The notes under the pieces: generated by a model
Databases searched by the model: none
What the model was told of the DNA's origin: nothing
The model's input: only the letters and a program-made list of their open reading frames with translations
Origin: Candidatus Gastranaerophilales bacterium
GTDB taxonomy: Bacteria > Cyanobacteriota > Vampirovibrionia > Gastranaerophilales > Gastranaerophilaceae
Length of the DNA stretch: 64,000 nt
Direction: 5' to 3'
NCBI GenBank assembly: GCA_900766355.1
Contig: CAAFVD010000064.1
Location: 100,585-164,584, forward strand
Program-made: the position numbers and the translations under genes
In this document: positions 9,587 through 63,050 of the stretch, one piece after another
Position numbering within the stretch: the stretch's first letter is position 1
Layout of the letters: each line of letters begins with the position of its first letter

Positions 9587-12500
9587 GTTTTTTCTCCTGT
9601 ATTTTTTGTATGCCTTTTTTAACTAGCCCTAGTCCTGATTTGCTGAGAGTTTTTAATCCACCAGCATAATACCAATCTTTCATTTTGTTAATAAGAACAA
9701 AGAATGCTGGAACTAGGATACTACCAATAAACGATACGGCAATCATACCACCAAAAACTGTCATACCTATAGAATGACGACTTCCTGCACCTGCACCATG
9801 TGCAAATACTAATGGTAGCAAACCTAAAATAAACGCAATATTTGTCATCATAACGGCTCTAAATCTTAGTTTAGCAGCTTGCATTGCTGCATCAATATAA
9901 TTCATACCGTCTTTTTCCATAGCATCTTTAGCAAACTCAACAATCAAAATTGCTTGTTTTGTACCTAAACCTACTAACATAACCAAACCGATTTGAGCAT
10001 ATATATCTAGTGAGTATCCTGAAACATATTGGAAGAATAACGCACCAACAAGAGCTACAGGAGATATTAGCATTACAGCGATAGGTAGTGTCCAACTTTC
10101 ATATAAAGCTACTAGGAATAAATATACAAAAGTTAAAGCCATTGCCAAAATTGGTCCGATTTGTCCAGAAGATTCTTTTTCTTGTAAAGATGTTCCTGAC
10201 CAGCTATATCCCATATCTTTTGGTAAAAGCTTATCAGACAATCGTTCCATTTCCTTCATAGCTTGTCCTGAACTTATATTGTTTGCAGGTGTTCCACTAA
10301 TCATGACTGATGGGTATAGGTTGTAACGTGTAATTGTATATGGTCCAACAATATTTTCTGTATGAGCAACTGAAGTTAGAGGAACCATATTACCTAAATT
10401 ATTTTTTACATACAATTTGCTCAAATCTGTAGGTTTAACACGATATGGAGCATCTGCTTGAATATATACACGATAAACTCTACCAAACTTGTTGAAATCG
10501 TTTACATAAGTAGAACCTAAGAAGCCTGCAAGCGTATTATAAATAGAAGATATATCAACACCTTGTGACATTGCTTTTTCTTCATCTATAACTATTTTAA
10601 GTTGAGGTAATGATGCACTATAAGTTGTAAATAATCTTGAAAACATAGGACTTTGAGAAGCCTCTGCCATGAATTTTTTACTAACATCAAACAACTGTTC
10701 AGGAGTTCTATCTCCTTTATCTAAAAGTCTGTATTCAAACCCACCAAACATACTCATACCTGAGATTGATGAAGGCGGGAAGGTTGCTACAGTAGCTTCT
10801 GTGAAATTAGCAAATTCTTTTTTTATTTCACGTTGAATAGCCTCCATAGATAATGATGCTTTTCGTCTGTGTGACCATTCATCTAGTTCAGATACAATAA
10901 GTACCATGTTTTCACCAGAAAAACCTGCAACTTCTAATGTACTTTTTACTCCAGGAATTTTCGCAATACGTTCAGCAACTTCAGCCCCTACAATATCACT
11001 TCGAGATACAGAAGCTCCGTCAGGAAGTTGTAATTGTGTGAATAATGCACCTTTATCTTCTGTAGGTAAGAAACCTTTTGGTATTAAGTAAAACATAAAT
11101 AAAATAAATACAAATACCAATAATAAAGTTTTAAGAGTCTTTTCTGGAGCTTCTACAAAATAACGAACTGTATTTAGATATTTGTCCCTAACTGAAAGAA
11201 ACCAATCATCAAACTTTTGTATAAATTCAAAGTCAGCTTTTTCAGAACCATCTTTTAGGATTATTGAACATAAAGCTGGTGATAATGTTAAAGCTACTAC
11301 TGTTGATAAACCTATAGACGTAGCTAGGCATAGTGCAAATTGTCTAAACATTTGTCCTGTAATACCCGTCATAAAAGATACAGGAACAAATACGGCCATT
11401 AAAACTAGAGATGTGGCAACAACCGCACCGAAAACTTCTTCCATCGTGATTTCGGTTGCCTCTTTTGGTGATTTACCGTCTTGAATGTGTCTTTGTGTGT
11501 TTTCAAGTACAACAATAGCGTCATCAACAACCAGACCAACTGCGAGAACTAATCCGAATAATATTAATAGGTTTATTGAAAATCCAAATAAGCCCATAAA
11601 TATAAATACTCCGATTAAAGATACAGGAATCGCACAGAACGGAATAAATGCAGAACGAGCAGTTCCTAAGAATAAATAAGTAACGATACTTACAAGTAAT
11701 ATTGCAAGCCCAATTGCACTAATAACTTCGTTGATAGACTCTCTAACAAACATTGTATCGTCATATTGTATGTTATAAGTAATATCGTTAGGGAATTTTT
11801 TACTCAATTCTTGCATCTTAGCTTTAGCTCTATTAACCAAATCTATTGAATTTGCATTTGGTAATTGAGTAATAGATATCATTGCACTATTTTTTCCTTC
11901 AACACGAGATATTGAAGAATAGTTGTTTGCACCCATTTCGACTCTAGCTATATCTTTAACTTTGACATTCGCACCGTTTGGTTTTGCTTTTACAATAATG
12001 TTTTCAAATTCTTCTACTGTTTTTAAACGTCCTTTTGTTCTCAATGTATATTTCAACACTTGAGGGTCTGTCATTGGTTCTACCCCAAGGTTACCAGCTG
12101 GAGCTTGCACGTTTTGTGCTGATATTGCATTTTGAACATCTGTCGATGAAATATTCAAACTAGCCATTTTTTGAGGGTTTAACCAAACTCTCATTGAGTA
12201 TTCACCAGCACCAAAAACTCCAACTTCTGCAACACCTTTTAATCTTGCTAGTTCATCTTTCAAGAACATTGTTGAGTAGTTAGCTAAGTATAATGAATCA
12301 TAAGTTCCATGAGGTGAACGAATAGACATCATTAAACATCCAGGGCCACCTGTAGATTTTTTTACGGTTAAGCCGTATCTTCTTACTTCTTCAGGTAATC
12401 TAGGAGTTACTAATTGTAGCTGGTTTTGTACGTTTACTAATGCCATATCAGGGTCTGTACCAACTGCAAAATATATTGTTAGTTTATAAGAATCGTTTCT

Positions 12501-22113: not shown

Positions 22114-22386
22114 ATGTACCAAGATGAAAAACTTATTTGTGAAGACTGTGGCAAGGAATTTGATTTCACTGCTGGAGAACAAGAATTTTATGCAGAAAAA
22201 GGGCTCACAAATAAGCCAAAACGATGCCCAGAATGCAGAAAAGCTAGAAGACAAAAAAACAGAAGAAAGATGTATGATGCTGTTTGTTCTAAATGTGGTG
22301 CTCAAACACAAGTTCCATTTAGACCGATTCCAGGTAGAGAAGTGCTTTGTAAAGCTTGTTTTGACGCAGAAAAACAAAAGCAATAA
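22114..22386 (+). CDS. Zinc-ribbon domain protein (two CxxC...CxxC units)
   Basis: 90 aa. CEDCGKEF...CPECRK and CSKCG...CKAC. RBS aggag lies 8 nt upstream. Confidence 0.5.
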   Translation: MYQDEKLICEDCGKEFDFTAGEQEFYAEKGLTNKPKRCPECRKARRQKNRRKMYDAVCSKCGAQTQVPFRPIPGREVLCKACFDAEKQKQ

Positions 22387-22727: not shown

Positions 22728-23651
22728 TTATCCAAAGAAATCTCTGAAATATTTTTCCATTTTATTCCCGAAATCGTATGCTTCTTTTTCTAAAGGATTA
22801 TTATAGTAATCTTTTGAACCAAGTCCGAGTTCGTTTAAGTTTACATAATTTCTAGTAGCTTCTATATATTTTTCTGCATCTTTGTATTCTTGACTATCTT
22901 TTTTATATCTAGGTAAGTTTAACGTATTTTTATGACTCTCTTTCATTTTTGTCATTATTGTTTCTGTACTATTTTTAAGGGTATTATCTAAAAATTCCTT
23001 ACCTTTTCCTTGTCTTACGGCTTCTCTATAAGCAAGGTTAAAATTAATCTCTAAAGGATTATTTCTTACGTTTCTTATAGATTGTTCTGCCCAAGCTTTT
23101 GCATATTCAGGTAATAAACCTGCTCGAATGATTTTAGCTGTTTGATCTGCGTGTTTTAATTCATGAGCTATTAATGAAAATTGACTAGCTTTATCAATCT
23201 TTGTGAAAAATCCGTCAGTATATCCTATCGTATTTAATGTAGGGTTATAACCGCCCTGTAGAGCAAAACAACCTTTATCCGCACCTAAGTGTTCAATTTT
23301 ATCTGGTACAATTTCATCAAGCCTCATATAATTTTTAAGTTTATCATAGGCTTTATTTATAAAGTTTTCGCCTTTTTCACCTTTTAAATCGTTAAAAATA
23401 GCTCGTAATTCTTCTGGTATTTGTTTAATTCGTTTTGCTCTATTGTGCTTATTAATAATTACGCTGCCGATTAAAATGATAGTGGCAAGTCCAGCAGCAA
23501 TTAAACCACGTTTTTGATTTTTACTTAAACCTGATTTTTCAAAAGAATCTTGTTGAGTTTCACTATTTTTAGGACGTAGTTGGGGTTGAACTTTGTTCTG
23601 AGGAATTTCAACAGAATTCGTAAAACGCAAATTTTGAATATTACTTACCAT
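22728..23651 (-). CDS. Membrane-anchored HExxH-motif protein (putative metallopeptidase), last gene of the rSAM locus
   Basis: 307 aa. A cytoplasmic N-tail, one TM (LIAAGLATIILIGSVII), and an extracytoplasmic domain with IAHELKHADQ. Paralogue of 499..1308. Confidence 0.5.
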   Translation of the reverse strand: MVSNIQNLRFTNSVEIPQNKVQPQLRPKNSETQQDSFEKSGLSKNQKRGLIAAGLATIILIGSVIINKHNRAKRIKQIPEELRAIFNDLKGEKGENFINKAYDKLKNYMRLDEIVPDKIEHLGADKGCFALQGGYNPTLNTIGYTDGFFTKIDKASQFSLIAHELKHADQTAKIIRAGLLPEYAKAWAEQSIRNVRNNPLEINFNLAYREAVRQGKGKEFLDNTLKNSTETIMTKMKESHKNTLNLPRYKKDSQEYKDAEKYIEATRNYVNLNELGLGSKDYYNNPLEKEAYDFGNKMEKYFRDFFG

Positions 23652-23687
23652 ACTATATATAATAAAACATTAAGTTCAAAAAATTTG

Positions 23688-24695
23688 CTATTCATCAAAA
23701 CCTTGTTGCTCTATTTTGTAAAGGCAAAAAGCACTACCTTGTTGAGTTCTAGGGTTTGTAGGGCAGCCACCTCGACAAATATATTTGTGTTTACATTCGT
23801 TACAATATCCTTTTAGCAACTCTATTTGAGGACTTCTATTGTATTTGAATGAGTTGTGGTCAGCCCAAATTTCTTTAAAAGGTCGAGTTTTTATATTACC
23901 TTCTGAATTGTTCATGTTTGGACAGCCTTTTACATTTCCATCTGCTTCAATGCTTACACTGTATATTCCACATTCGCAACCTCGCCAATTTTGAATATGC
24001 AGTTTAGGTTGTAATTGAGAAAAATATCCAATACAATCAGATTCCATTATATTAATTTTATCTAAATAATTTTCTCGATATTCTGTTATTTTTTTAGCTA
24101 AATCATAATATTGTTTTTCTGTAAGAAGTTCGTCTTTTGGTAATCTTTCGCTGGGTTTTACTATTTGTAACTGCCAAGCATCAACACCTAAGGATATTAA
24201 CAAATTTAAGATATCATCTAATTTGTCATAGTTAGATTGCATTACTGTAGTTGGTATAGCAACATATATCCCAATTTCTTTTAGTTTTGGAACAATATTG
24301 CAAAAATGTTCAAATATTCCAGAAATTCCTCTTACGTAGTCGTGTGTTTCCTTGTCAGGCCCATCAAGGCTGATACCAATTGCAGTATTTGGATATAGCT
24401 TTAATATATCTAAAACATCATCATTGATTAGCATTGCATTTGTCATAAATATTGCTTGCATATCAAGACTATTTATTTTTTGCAAAAATAAAGGCCATTC
24501 TTTTCTTAAAAAAGGTTCTCCGCCTGTAAGTGCAATGGATTGGCAACCCAAATCGCTCATATCTTCTATGAGTGTTAATATTTCTTGTGTGGAAAGTTCC
24601 ACGGGCATTGAATGTCCAGCATTAATGATACAATGTATACATTTTGCATTACAACGGCGAGTGATTTCTATCGTTGAAGAAAGTAATTTATACAT
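23688..24695 (-). CDS. Radical SAM / SPASM-domain enzyme (compact, no RRE domain) - candidate peptide-modifying maturase
   Basis: 335 aa. CNAKCIHC (Cx3Cx2C) at residues 15-22, a GGEP motif, and a C-terminal SPASM signature CNECKHKYICRGGC (Cx2Cx5Cx3C) plus upstream C..C...C. Confidence 0.85.
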   Translation of the reverse strand: MYKLLSSTIEITRRCNAKCIHCIINAGHSMPVELSTQEILTLIEDMSDLGCQSIALTGGEPFLRKEWPLFLQKINSLDMQAIFMTNAMLINDDVLDILKLYPNTAIGISLDGPDKETHDYVRGISGIFEHFCNIVPKLKEIGIYVAIPTTVMQSNYDKLDDILNLLISLGVDAWQLQIVKPSERLPKDELLTEKQYYDLAKKITEYRENYLDKINIMESDCIGYFSQLQPKLHIQNWRGCECGIYSVSIEADGNVKGCPNMNNSEGNIKTRPFKEIWADHNSFKYNRSPQIELLKGYCNECKHKYICRGGCPTNPRTQQGSAFCLYKIEQQGFDE

Positions 24696-24717
24696 ATTTT
24701 ATATATTACAAATTCGT

Positions 24718-25041
24718 TTATTTTTTGTCAATGTTTTCAGGCTTTACTTCAACTTCTGTTGGGACTTCTTTTTGTGGTGGAGCAATAATTCCAGCAAGTG
24801 GTTGTGGTTTTTTAGTTGGAGTTTTTGAAGGTACACTTGGTGGTGCAATAATTCCAGCTAATGGTGGAGTAGGATAAGCTGGTGCTTTAGGAGGAACAGT
24901 AGGTGGTGTAATCAATCCAGCTAATGGCGTAGGTGTTGGTAACACTTCTGGTTGTTTCGTAGGTGGTGTTACAATCTTTCCTGCTAATGGTTGATTAGTA
25001 TTTTGTTTGAAATTAACCGGTCTAAAACCTACATTGAACAT
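24718..25041 (-). CDS. Repeat-containing small protein: candidate RiPP precursor with 5 tandem PLAG[IKL]I[ATV]PP-type repeats
   Basis: 107 aa. MFNVGFRPVNFKQNTNQ-PLAGKIVTPP...PLAGLITPP...PLAGIIAPP...PLAGIIAPP.... RBS ggaggtg lies 7 nt upstream. It ends 22 nt before the rSAM gene. Confidence 0.55.
   Translation of the reverse strand: MFNVGFRPVNFKQNTNQPLAGKIVTPPTKQPEVLPTPTPLAGLITPPTVPPKAPAYPTPPLAGIIAPPSVPSKTPTKKPQPLAGIIAPPQKEVPTEVEVKPENIDKK
24775..24993. repeat. DNA-level tandem repeat (~45-nt units) encoding the PLAGxIxPP peptide repeats
   Basis: Reiterated ggtggtgcaataattccagc[at]a[ag]tgg blocks are visible on the plus strand. Confidence 0.6.
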
Positions 25042-25149
25042 ATTTCACACCTCCATAATGTATCTACATTTATACGAAAACATTTTATTGAAATTTTTTG
25101 ATAAAATGTGAAAATTTTGTTACAAAATAAAGGTTGTAGAGAGTTAATT

Positions 25150-25770
25150 CTACGAGTTTTTAAGATGTTTTATGTGTTTATAGATATATATTCCGCCTAG
25201 AATTAAACATGCAACTATTATAATTGCATCAAATTTATGCCAAATCGATTTTAGAGCTTCCATATTTTCGCCCATTTTTACACCAACAAATACAAGAACA
25301 TAACACCACAACAAAGAACCTAAAAATGTTAATGTGAAGAATATTCTTTTTCTCGCTCTTAAGATTCCTGCAGGGAAAGATATAAATGTTCTTATTACTG
25401 GTAACATTCTACATATAAAAAATGCCCAATCTCCGTATTTATCAACCCATTTGTCCGCATCTTCCAAATCTTTTTGAGAAACTAAGAAATATTTTCCATA
25501 TTTTTCAACAAAAGGTCTGCCTCCGAAGTATCCTAAGTAATATGACGGTATAGAACCTAGAACGCAACCTATAGCTCCAAAAATTGCAGCTATATGAAAG
25601 TTCATAACTCCTTTGTTTACCAAAATACCAGCAAAAGGTAAAACTGCTTCGCTCGGTAGTGGAATGTTACATGATTCAATAGCCATTAGTAAGCTAACAC
25701 CCCAAGGTCCTAGAACAGTTATTATATGCTCCATTGTTTCACTTAGCCATAATAATAAACTATCAATCAT
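25150..25770 (-). CDS. DedA/TVP38 family membrane protein
   Basis: 206 aa polytopic protein with the DedA-typical motif and size. Confidence 0.75.
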   Translation of the reverse strand: MIDSLLLWLSETMEHIITVLGPWGVSLLMAIESCNIPLPSEAVLPFAGILVNKGVMNFHIAAIFGAIGCVLGSIPSYYLGYFGGRPFVEKYGKYFLVSQKDLEDADKWVDKYGDWAFFICRMLPVIRTFISFPAGILRARKRIFFTLTFLGSLLWCYVLVFVGVKMGENMEALKSIWHKFDAIIIVACLILGGIYIYKHIKHLKNS

Positions 25771-61575: not shown

Positions 61576-62127
61576 TTATCTTTTTGTCAAATCTCTTAAA
61601 TAATTTCTGACACCATGTGTTAGTATCAAATCAGGTTCTCTCATGCAAAAATCATCTAATGTCATTATTCCCATTCTCGTTTGCCCTGATTCAGCATATA
61701 ATAACCCCAACATAACTTTATCTAATGGGTTTTTAGATATTTTATATCTTGAAATCATTTTTTGTTCCATCTTCATTTGTTTATAGCATTTTGCCAAGTT
61801 TTGATAGTACAAAAAATTTAATCCATATAATTTTAAAGCTCTTTCAAAACAATCTTGAGCTTCTACAGGAAATCCTAATTTCATATATACTTCGCCCAAA
61901 TTGTTGTAATATACAGAACTCGCCTGACTATTAGGGTTTAAGCTAATTGCAATCTTAAATTCTTGAATAGCCGCATAATAGCATCTTTCTCGTACATATT
62001 CCGTTCCTAAAACATTATGTCTAGATGCATTTGTAATTGCATCTATATGGAATTTATCCGGACGTTTATATCCACTCAAAAAAATGGTAGAAATTAAGAT
62101 TAATAAAACTACAAAATATTTTTTCAT
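61576..62127 (-). CDS. TPR-like repeat lipoprotein/secreted protein
   Basis: 183 aa with a signal peptide (Cys absent, so probably SPI type) and TPR-like helices. Confidence 0.5.
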   Translation of the reverse strand: MKKYFVVLLILISTIFLSGYKRPDKFHIDAITNASRHNVLGTEYVRERCYYAAIQEFKIAISLNPNSQASSVYYNNLGEVYMKLGFPVEAQDCFERALKLYGLNFLYYQNLAKCYKQMKMEQKMISRYKISKNPLDKVMLGLLYAESGQTRMGIMTLDDFCMREPDLILTHGVRNYLRDLTKR

Positions 62128-63050
62128 TATATATTAATTTCTAATCCTTCTTTTGCAAAAATCAAGTTTTCTTCCTTATATTCTTCTGCAATCAAATCAA
62201 GTTTTTCATCAGTATATGATGGTTCATAATGGAAGAATACTAAAGTTTTTGCGTTTGTTTGAACTTTCATTTCTTTTGCCATTTCAAAAGTAGAATGTCC
62301 AAATCCTTGTTTTGGTGAATATAAGTTTTGGTAATCTTCTGTTGTGTATTGAGAATCATGTATCAAGCAATCACAGTTTTTAGCAAACTTTGCAAGTTTA
62401 ACATCTCCTCCAATATAACTTTCTTTATCTGTTGCATAAACTAAAGATTTTCCTTTATATTCTATCTTATAAACAATTACCCCGTTCTGTGGGTGAGCAA
62501 ATGATTTATAGCAAGATATTATAATATCATCGTCTGAAATTTTCATTTTTTGGAAATCGCAAACATTTGTCACTATAGTTGTTAAATCTTTTTTGATTAT
62601 TATATAACTTGTTTCGTTTACATCTGAACAAACCATATCAGCAGCGATATCTGCTGCATCAAGAGGGAATGTTTTGTTAAACAAAACTTGAGCCAATTCT
62701 TCGTCTAAAGTTTCTCCTCTAGAAGGGTTGCCAAATACATTTAATCTCGTAGATGCAATATGTAGTGGAGAGAAAAACGGAATACCCATAATATGATCTT
62801 GATGAATATGGCTTAACAAAATAGCTGCTACAACAGGTTTTCTATTTGAAAGTGTAGTTCCAGAATTGATGTATTCTTTCATCAATTCTTCTCCTAGAGA
62901 TATAAGTCCTGTACCTGCATCAAGTATTATTAATCTGCCATCAATATTGACTTCGACACAAGATGTGTTTCCTCCATATTCTAAAAAACGTTCATTTGCT
63001 ACAGGATAGCTTCCTCTAACACCACGAAATCTGATTGTAAAATTTTTCAT
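62127..63050 (-). CDS. Metallo-beta-lactamase-fold hydrolase
   Basis: 307 aa. HIHQDH (HxHxDH) plus downstream His/Asp ligands. Confidence 0.7.
   Translation of the reverse strand: MKNFTIRFRGVRGSYPVANERFLEYGGNTSCVEVNIDGRLIILDAGTGLISLGEELMKEYINSGTTLSNRKPVVAAILLSHIHQDHIMGIPFFSPLHIASTRLNVFGNPSRGETLDEELAQVLFNKTFPLDAADIAADMVCSDVNETSYIIIKKDLTTIVTNVCDFQKMKISDDDIIISCYKSFAHPQNGVIVYKIEYKGKSLVYATDKESYIGGDVKLAKFAKNCDCLIHDSQYTTEDYQNLYSPKQGFGHSTFEMAKEMKVQTNAKTLVFFHYEPSYTDEKLDLIAEEYKEENLIFAKEGLEINI

Follow-up and report, generated by a model that had tools for sequence, protein, structure and literature searches.

A two-gene cassette of a radical SAM/SPASM enzyme and a proline-rich repeat protein in Gastranaerophilaceae, with epimerization as a tentative chemistry

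A 64,000-nucleotide (nt) stretch of DNA from a Candidatus Gastranaerophilales bacterium (contig CAAFVD010000064.1, positions 100,585 to 164,584), referred to here as the window, encodes a radical S-adenosylmethionine (SAM) enzyme with a SPASM domain directly downstream of a gene for a small proline-rich repeat protein, the A protein. The A gene and the enzyme gene are a real, self-contained two-gene cassette. The pair, located at 23688-25041 on the minus strand, very probably represents a dedicated maturase without a RiPP recognition element (RRE; RiPP, peptide that is ribosomally synthesized and then post-translationally modified) together with a proline-rich substrate carrying several modification sites. 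The enzyme most likely modifies the four PLAGxI sites of the repeat protein. For the explanation as a whole, which combines this architecture with an epimerization within each site, a probability of about 0.35 is estimated.

Such a pair would constitute a compact, leader-independent enzyme/tag system, consisting of an 11-residue motif and an enzyme of 335 amino acids (aa), in the Gastranaerophilaceae, the non-photosynthetic gut relatives of cyanobacteria. Radical SAM-modified peptides from this family have not been reported in the accessible literature.

The repeat protein and its conservation with the enzyme

The features of the cassette, all on the minus strand of the window, are as follows.

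24718..25041: A gene, encoding the 107-aa proline-rich repeat protein, the presumed substrate (from its open reading frame (ORF), homologues, and upstream motif proteins elsewhere)
25050..25054: ribosome-binding site GGAGG of the A gene, 8 nt ahead of the ATG (read from the sequence)
24964..24996: repeat 1, NQPLAGKIVTP, residues 16-26
24901..24933: repeat 2, PTPLAGLITPP, residues 37-47
24838..24870: repeat 3, TPPLAGIIAPP, residues 58-68
24775..24807: repeat 4, PQPLAGIIAPP, residues 79-89
24696..24717: spacer of 22 nt between A gene stop and enzyme gene start, an operon-like spacing
23688..24695: radical SAM/SPASM gene, encoding the 335-aa enzyme without RRE (Pfam PF04055 and PF13186)
24630..24653: CX3CX2C radical SAM cluster motif, C15/C19/C22 (invariant in two homologue alignments)
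23967..23981: GCECG, G239-G243, including the clade-specific C242 (homologue alignment and tree)
23763..23804: SPASM motif CX2CX5CX3C, C298/C301/C307/C311 (invariant columns in two homologue alignments)

An earlier note on this DNA had described both ORFs and the 22-nt gap between them, and these were found at the stated coordinates, on the minus strand. The same note had counted five tandem repeats in the A protein. Four PLAG copies are present (QPLAGKIVTPP, TPLAGLITPP, PPLAGIIAPP, and QPLAGIIAPP), which begin at residues 16, 37, 58, and 79 with a period of exactly 21 aa (63 nt), and three of the four match the proposed pattern PLAG[IKL]I[ATV]PP exactly. The suggested repetition at the DNA level is real but degenerate: a gap-free repeat search of the A gene found a 38-nt core four times at an exact spacing of 63 nt with pairwise identities of 71-79%, whereas Tandem Repeats Finder reported no array within the gene. 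The N-terminus of the A protein reads MFNVGFRPVNFKQ. The protein contains no Cys, Trp, or His, and neither YG nor GDL; its single Tyr sits in AYPTPP.

The proposal that the small ORF is a genuine gene, tightly coupled to the enzyme gene, is supported, with upstream equivalents in nine further loci. The pattern P[LIMVT][ASG]G.[IVM] matches four times within the 107 aa of the A protein, compared with a single match in all other window ORFs that reach 150 aa (17,267 aa in total). Among 100,000 composition-preserving shuffles of the A protein, none had four matches, and the maximum was two. A sequence search with the A protein retrieved three relatives only, which is in line with a repeat protein that is short and evolves fast. 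Its homologues are 85-106 aa long, the copy-number difference being 21 aa. Within the species of the window, alleles of 85/86 aa (P0002, P0309) and of 105-109 aa (P0001, window) differ in-frame by one 21-aa unit. The exact 107-aa protein of the window is absent from a collection of 15 billion proteins. At a GC content of 31% in the window, a promoter and terminator scan was uninformative (17 sites vs 16.2 expected). The housekeeping genes nearby (rpsU, DedA, DAHP synthase) belong to 90%-identity clusters labelled 'Candidatus Gastranaerophilaceae bacterium' or 'Cyanobacteria bacterium SIG32', which places the window in a gut Melainabacteria/Vampirovibrionia genome.

Directly upstream of the radical SAM gene and on the same strand, proteins with two to four P-[LMIVT]-[ASG]-G-x-[IV] sites at intervals of about 21 aa are encoded in the nine further distinct loci. 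The enzymes of these loci are 56-78% identical to that of the window or untyped, with the near-duplicates L087 (same species) and L089 counted apart, and the gap between motif gene and enzyme gene ranges from 3 to 119 nt. Thus, the adjacency of peptide and enzyme genes, on which the earlier note had made its proposal depend, is conserved in relatives. The sites in these loci, with the identity of the respective enzyme to that of the window, are given below.

L095 (enzyme identity not measured, HExxH protein 49%): four PLAG copies
L094 (78%): QPLAGLI, LPTAGLI, PPLAGLV, VTTAGLV
L090 (74%): QPLAGLV, PPIGGLI, APVGGLI, TVTAGLI
L081/L082 (66%): KPMSGDI, RPLAGKI, RPLAGLV, PVLSGLI
L093 (63%): KPMSGNV, LPMAGKI
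L083 (61%): NPISGNV, TPLAGLV, PPLSGAV, PPLAGNV
L088 (59%): three copies of PMSG[ML]VSPP
L001/L089 (56%): PPIMAGKV, EPLSGDV, PPLAGVV, PSVAGDI

In a profile of 39 pooled sites, position -3 is Pro in 87% and position -2 is L, M, T, V, or I. Position -1 is occupied by Ala (69%), Ser (23%), or Gly (8%), position +2 by Ile or Val in 38 of the 39 sites (97%), and Pro-Pro is found at +4/+5 in about 73%. Position 0 is Gly in every repeat read by eye; the search pattern fixed this residue, and hence its invariance is unmeasured. The spacing of the sites is 18-25 residues in every species. Among species, the motif codons vary synonymously, with all four Gly codons, four Leu codons (TTA/TTG/CTT/CTA), three Pro codons, and four Ala codons in use; therefore, selection acts on the protein.

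The flanks of the pair differ among the loci: the window has LepA/DedA, L081 has UDG and rplU/rpmA, L094 has PNPase and a CHAP protein, L090 has an FMN reductase, and L083 has a giant acetyltransferase-domain protein. Across the loci compared, gain, loss, and relocation affect both genes of the pair together. One locus (L096) is syntenic with the window in the order MutS2-LepA-DedA-[ ]-HExxH-rpsU-zf-PDT-DAHPS and lacks the pair; there, the gene for the HExxH protein comes next after DedA, at a distance of 51 nt. A comparison of L096 3329-4924 with window 22728-25770 displays a clean presence/absence polymorphism of a cassette of ~1.45 kb between DedA and the HExxH gene in closely related Gastranaerophilaceae.

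Homologues of the enzyme are graded from 99% down to ~35% identity. A scan of species-representative genomes, keyed on the generic GGEPFLRK stretch of the enzyme alignment, retrieved one orthologue (L001, Cyanobacteria bacterium UBA1221) alongside 79 unrelated SPASM proteins, and a metagenome scan with the DNA pattern for GCECG...DGxVKGCP retrieved four loci only.

No leader, RRE protein, protease, transporter, or other gene is conserved beside the pair in the loci compared. The partner proteins share no N-terminal leader; that of L081 starts with MINKLNVNFAG and that of L083 directly with a repeat. The N-terminus of the L001 partner resembles a signal peptide and may include a lipobox (LCMGC), those of L083 and L093 have a C-terminal hydrophobic transmembrane segment, and the more distant partners in L084 and L092 have an N-terminal membrane helix. 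Other partner proteins have a charged, helix-prone C-terminal tail.

The radical SAM/SPASM enzyme and its relatives

Pfam assigns residues 9-166 of the window enzyme to Radical_SAM and residues 240-302 to SPASM, and the canonical CX3CX2C and exact CX2CX5CX3C motifs noted earlier are both in place. Invariant in the alignments are C15/19/22, C240, C258, C298, C301, C307, C311, and C324, and C221 in addition. The SPASM region comprises nine Cys (C221, 240, 242, 258, 298, 301, 307, 311, and 324), which is one beyond the need for full ligation of two clusters, with C242 as the presumed spare. The absence of an N-terminal RRE, also noted earlier, is borne out by the radical SAM core starting at residue 9 and by an AlphaFold2 (AF2) model (pLDDT 95) that has a partial TIM barrel and the SPASM domain only and no winged-helix domain. 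Generic features of a radical SAM/SPASM maturase are all present, namely CX3CX2C, the seven-Cys SPASM motif, and an adjoining co-conserved substrate gene.

Public calls of the enzyme from the same species are often 306 aa long and start at Met30; P0383 (48 contigs), for example, equals window residues 30-335. These calls lose CX3CX2C. In the window, the 29 codons ahead of Met30 are intact, and the orthologues of other species all begin with MYKL. With such N-terminally shortened public calls, motif-based genome mining will tend to miss the enzyme.

The window enzyme reaches no NCBIfam cut-off, as is apparent from its scores with the following models.

TIGR03913, GDL-motif maturase: 163 bits, cut-off 592
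NirJ2, haem d1 biosynthesis: 161 bits, cut-off 500
TIGR04103, PlpX family: 152 bits, cut-off 725
AhbD, haem biosynthesis: 150 bits, cut-off 500
TIGR03942, anaerobic sulfatase-maturating enzyme (anSME): 76.5 bits, cut-off 349

In an NCBIfam scan of the 82 nearest 50%-identity representatives, no curated family was assignable to the clade. For the nearest of these representatives and for distant family members, the best curated matches are TIGR04103 and TIGR03913 with 200-320 bits, which is below the cut-offs. TIGR04103 presumably corresponds to IPR026482, the PlpX model. PlpX, the founding tyramine splicease, is listed under IPR026482 (PMC11002830). An exhaustive HMMER search of 1.84 billion representatives revealed a small family that soon fades into general SPASM space.

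Among PDB entries, SkfB is the best match by sequence (E = 6e-22, core only), followed by BlsE, CteB, PqqE, and SuiB, and TigE is not among the matches even at E up to 10. In a Foldseek search, SkfB, SuiB, PqqE, and anSME lead; these fold neighbours of the modelled structure are peptide or protein maturases. The similarity to anSME (TM ~0.72) extends to the RRE-less SPASM architecture and to the use of a short motif within a protein rather than a leader. The earlier note had left open whether the enzyme would cluster with the sulfatase maturases; it is not an anSME, as its TIGR03942 score indicates, no sulfatase gene adjoins the window pair, and the motif is not C/S-x-P/A-x-R, having A, S, or G at position -1 without a conserved Ser or Cys. 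From the GDL-motif maturases, the system differs in its score and in an A protein without GDL.

The resemblance to the epipeptide genes yydF/G/H that the earlier note had seen is not homology. YydG, also known as EpeE, is matched by sequence at E = 0.0016 and over residues 8-81 only, the SAM-cluster loop, and ranks ~45th by fold (TM 0.59), behind viperin and MoaA too. The truncated T-SPASM domain of EpeE holds just one auxiliary cluster (PMC13012085), unlike the full SPASM domain of the window enzyme. The enzyme lineage is uncharacterized and is neither YydG-like nor an anSME nor a cyclopropyl synthase of the TvgB/TigE type. It was not found in the literature searched, in which the splicease survey is represented through a citing summary (PMC10849128).

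The similar scores of NirJ2, AhbD, and the peptide-maturase models could be taken to mean that the two genes do not encode an enzyme and its substrate. The A protein would then be a proline-rich linker or component of the envelope that stays unmodified, and the enzyme would have a housekeeping role, for example in a NirJ/AhbD-like cofactor function; the enzyme-substrate link is indeed inferred. This explanation is quite improbable: the scores lie far under the cut-offs, no haem-pathway genes adjoin the pair, the pair moves as a unit, and the enzyme motif tracks the partner motif.

This tracking becomes apparent from the wider family. Homologues with at least 47% identity all contain W-x-G-C-x-C-G and KGCPNM, and those with at most 46% identity all contain G-C-[QHN..]-A-G and mostly KGCLS[LI]. 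In a neighbour-joining tree, which did not include the verified spliceases PlpX and RhaX, the CxC clade is monophyletic and sister to a YA[GA]P clade. The GCxCG + KGCPNM clade co-occurs with aliphatic motifs, with Tyr in none of its 39 motif instances, and the GC[QH]AG + KGCLS clades co-occur with Tyr motifs. The partners found at lower enzyme identity are listed here.

L091 (48%): divergently transcribed EF-hand protein with four copies of GGxPMIA[GED]PW
L084, L092 (43-44%): membrane-anchored proteins with [RK]YAGP or [KM]YAAP repeats
L085 (40%): proline-rich proteins with QPLYGVP, PVYGVP, and SLYAAP
L086, archaeal (36%): six small peptides ending in xYGT[IV]SI[KN]DF

The partner motifs of L085 and L086 look like classical X-Tyr-Gly splice sites, as far as can be told from their sequences. 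Such a sharp motif switch by auxiliary cluster I relative to the Tyr-motif sister clades would be a natural experiment in a SPASM enzyme's change of substrate and possibly of reaction.

Several of these loci are noteworthy in their own right. In L085 (3350-4856), two paralogous, extremely proline-rich proteins of 241 and 123 aa are encoded upstream of a 379-aa radical SAM enzyme; both have an N-terminal AQP[LV]YGVPYP, with LLYGVP and SLYAAP as the sites at the C-terminus. The archaeal locus L086 (3554-8751) contains two paralogous radical SAM/SPASM genes, six ORFs of 57-70 aa, and a gene for a methyltransferase/TPR-like protein, and looks like an undescribed XYG (spliceotide-like) cluster. The EF-hand protein of L091 (1912-2850, minus strand; 312 aa), divergent from a GCSCG-type radical SAM gene, may be a protein substrate of the intermediate clade. 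In a soil metagenome (L097 188-3646, plus strand), an RHS/YD-repeat protein whose C-terminus repeats KFSDDANQTKAQ is encoded upstream of the radical SAM protein P0078; its YxYAG-like strings were considered as a substrate motif and read as an ordinary RHS C-terminal motif.

Proposed chemistry at the repeat sites

The substrate motif is proposed to be P-Φ-(A/S/G)-G-x-(I/V)-x-P-P in several copies about 21 residues apart. The enzyme very probably recognizes this repeated core as such, with one reaction at each repeat, since the partner proteins share no leader and the enzyme has no RRE. The system looks like a leader-independent protein modification and not like a classic secreted RiPP. The outcome is probably not a small secreted RiPP but a modified protein or long peptide that in many cases remains tethered to the membrane, because no protease or exporter accompanies the pair and several partners carry a signal-peptide-like or transmembrane anchor.

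Several chemistries can be set aside. Thioether, cyclophane, ether-to-aromatic, and tyramine-excision reactions are out, as Cys, Trp, and His are missing from the substrate and Tyr from its motif; the first two had already been considered unlikely in the earlier note. Sactipeptide, ranthipeptide, and cyclophane formation were ruled out on the same composition, a formylglycine-type reaction by A, S, or G at position -1, and glycyl-radical activation by the wrong enzyme family and an unfitting motif context. Side-chain chemistry at position -1 is excluded because this position can be Gly, and the residues at position -2 (L/M/I/V/T) have only a Cα-H or Cβ-H in common. With a substrate that lacks Cys, Trp, and a reactive Tyr, the reaction would have to target aliphatic residues, small residues, or the backbone, the part of radical SAM peptide chemistry that has been explored least.

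Within these limits, epimerization in the Φ-small-Gly segment is put forward tentatively. SAM would be cleaved reductively to a 5'-deoxyadenosyl (5'-dA) radical, which would take a Cα-H inside this segment. The resulting radical would be quenched from the opposite face by the spare C242, beside the ligands of auxiliary cluster I, leading to a mass-neutral L-to-D epimerization per repeat. The D-residues would shield the exposed proline-rich protein in the gut. Epimerization had been suggested before and is still a reasonable guess, although the earlier grounds based on YydG are unsupported and other grounds are used here. It is favoured because it is the sole known radical SAM peptide chemistry that fits every natural motif variant, requiring only Cα-H abstraction. 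In addition, a small residue (A/S/G) followed by Gly is expected where a D-like backbone with positive phi is needed, which Gly adopts unmodified, and the clade gained a spare Cys by auxiliary cluster I, in a logic that parallels Cys223, the H-donor in EpeE. Epimerases typically act on Ile and Val. In EpeE, a thiol H-donor (Cys223) beside the auxiliary cluster is established epimerase logic (PMC13012085), and EpeE and the window enzyme have in common the compact RRE-less build and aliphatic residues in the substrate; C242 may likewise be a thiol H-donor near an auxiliary cluster.

Other observations weigh against epimerization. The chemistry is purely inferred, and the enzyme is unrelated to both known radical SAM epimerase families, its match to YydG/EpeE covering the cluster-binding loop only. 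A full two-cluster SPASM domain usually goes with redox-active (oxidative) chemistry and not with a redox-neutral epimerization. PoyD-type epimerases have no SPASM domain (PMC13012085). Furthermore, the closest curated models and the sister-clade motifs point to a Tyr-directed or splicease-like ancestry, C242 could be an alternative cluster ligand, the evidence on the Tyr clades comes from four loci only, and the basal GCxCG member P0078 (L097/L098; soil, 60% GC) is without a recognizable partner gene.

Tyramine splicing consists in the excision of a tyramine equivalent (-135.06 Da), which gives an α-ketoamide. In a tyrosine-independent version, the main rival to epimerization, a splicease-derived enzyme would excise an aliphatic (or small) residue of P-Φ-small-G and join the flanking carbonyls, so that each repeat would carry a Pro- or Leu/Met-derived α-keto-β-amino acid. 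Spliceotide systems (PlpX/PlpY/PlpA and the binary RhaX/RhaA, RcsX, and RasX) resemble the pair in having a radical SAM/SPASM gene beside a substrate gene, in their binary versions, in a possible leader-independent recognition, and in several sites per substrate (PMC11414181, PMC11626197, PMC9811515). They also represent the best curated hidden Markov model (HMM) neighbourhood of the wider family, TIGR04103 being the best match of the nearest 50%-identity representatives and of distant clades, and relatives with 36-40% identity adjoin XYG peptides (PLYGVP in L085, xYGT in L086), QPLYG of L085 being similar to QPLAG of the window. The residue ahead of the reactive one is natively Leu or Met (PMC11626197, PMC9811515), binary X+A systems without a Y protein are known (PMC11414181), and excision of Φ would explain why this residue varies (L/M/T/V/I) beside a highly conserved Pro. 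According to the citing summary, published mining selected YG-rich precursors and would have missed the clade (PMC10849128).

This splicing reading is nevertheless doubtful. The motif has no Tyr or YG, and confirmed splicease substrates all carry YG (PMC10849128). The score of the window enzyme with TIGR04103 is no better than with NirJ2 or AhbD, GCxCG and KGCPNM are absent from the Tyr-associated clades, and these clade-specific changes by auxiliary cluster I suggest an altered chemistry. Gly can stand at position -1, so that no side chain is available there for a reaction, and the pair has neither a leader helix nor a Y protein, its substrates being regular proline-rich repeats, some of them membrane-anchored. 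It is rather unlikely that a splicease lineage freed of tyrosine, or another backbone-editing radical SAM enzyme, leaves proline-derived α-keto-β-amino acids at each site. If it did, the proline-rich protein would be a multivalent, often membrane-tethered ketoamide inhibitor of (post-proline) serine/cysteine peptidases in the gut, and the reaction would be a new one for radical SAM enzymes, on unactivated aliphatic residues and set by an 11-residue leaderless tag.

Further alternatives would be C-C bond formation or desaturation (-2 Da) on the Ile or Val at +2 or on Φ, for example to (methyl)cyclopropylglycine as formed by TvgB and TigE. TvgA and TigB have short aliphatic motifs (TVGG and TIGSVS) repeated up to five times with a conserved Val or Ile, and a single SPASM radical SAM enzyme acts at every repeat (PMC9062424, PMC10878394). 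The same logic could apply to the present sites with Ile or Val near small residues, and a full SPASM domain suits an oxidative reaction. This chemistry is improbable. An N-terminal RRE is part of TvgB and TigE, and so is a strictly conserved GYW, the Tyr of which ligates auxiliary cluster I (PMC10878394). The window enzyme has no RRE and no detectable sequence relation to TigE, and the family-defining GYW is replaced by GYF at 223-225 and by GY[FNYH] in 120 homologues, never GYW. Moreover, Ile or Val at +2 is not conserved in the sister clades.

SPASM enzymes such as anSME perform two-electron oxidations following H abstraction. Given the fold similarity to anSME, Cα oxidation of the Gly to an imine or α-hydroxyglycine is conceivable, followed by backbone scission and a protease-free release of C-terminally amidated peptides of ~21 aa. 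Such a reaction would account for the Gly at position 0, which was fixed by the search pattern, for the regular 21-aa spacing, and for the missing conserved protease. To our knowledge, oxidative backbone scission at Gly has no precedent among radical SAM enzymes, the KYAAP motif of the sister clade has no Gly, and the anchoring of several A proteins in the membrane by one end favours an intact product. This possibility is very improbable.

The general kind of system is already known, as SPASM radical SAM enzymes act on repeated motifs (TvgA, TigB) or on leaderless motifs within proteins (splice tags, anSME); the view in the earlier note that multi-core aliphatic substrates were undescribed does not hold given the published TvgA and TigB. 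The present pair stands out by its motif, by lacking an RRE, a leader, a protease, and an exporter, by substrates anchored in the membrane, and by its Melainabacteria host. A real though minor chance exists that its chemistry is new. If the modification proves useful (D-residues, ketoamides, or cyclopropanes), the short tag might be portable into proteins, as with splice tags.

The HExxH membrane protein and other neighbouring genes

The gene downstream of the cassette had been regarded in the earlier note as encoding a membrane-anchored HExxH protein and was considered to be the protease of the system. The first description is accurate:

22728..23651, minus strand: HExxH membrane protein gene (hydrophobic helix ~49-67, HELKH 163-167)

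Its family comprises 25 unannotated homologues without a Pfam or NCBIfam match. H163, E164, H167, Q170, and the distal E288/E290 are invariant in a 16-member alignment, and the protein may well be a membrane metallopeptidase. Its AF2 model (pLDDT 80) has no significant fold match in the PDB and a weak local likeness to minigluzincins (selecase, probability 0.89, E = 1.8). A 307-aa ORF at window 62127-63050 was considered as a paralogue and rejected.

In Bacillus subtilis, the yydFGHIJ operon encodes the membrane protease YydH and the ABC transporter YydIJ. A corresponding three-gene model, with a YydF/G/H-like epipeptide system in which the HExxH protease cuts between the repeats, would be in line with the order peptide-radical SAM-HExxH in the window, L087, and L095, with the invariant HExxH and distal Glu, and with the weak minigluzincin matches. 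Synteny largely refutes this model. L096 retains the HExxH gene (its product 81% identical to that of the window) in the same syntenic slot without the pair, and the pair occurs with no HExxH gene beside it in seven other species-level loci. The HExxH gene also has its own upstream region, conserved in the window and L096 according to a boundary alignment. The HExxH protein is a conserved syntenic neighbour and not a component of the cassette. The similarity of the enzyme to YydG is generic only, and in contrast to the epipeptide system the pair has no conserved protease, no transporter in any locus, and a multi-site substrate, so that the three-gene model is scarcely credible.

Additional genes adjoin the pair in individual species. 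Immediately upstream of the repeat gene in L001 (2036-3424, plus strand), and partially in L089, lies a gene whose 462-aa product contains CNKGCLHC and matches Radical_SAM below the threshold (24 bits). Seen in this species only, it may be a second radical SAM partner. In L090 only (9935-10477, plus strand), a gene for an NADPH-dependent FMN reductase/flavodoxin-like protein (PF03358, E = 5e-25) starts 24 nt past the stop of the enzyme gene, and its product could be a reductant for the enzyme. Between the prephenate dehydratase gene and rpsU of the window (22114-22386, plus strand) lies a gene for a zinc-ribbon protein of 90 aa that is rich in Cys and has several CxxC pairs; its counterpart in L096, called zf_Tbcl, is conserved.

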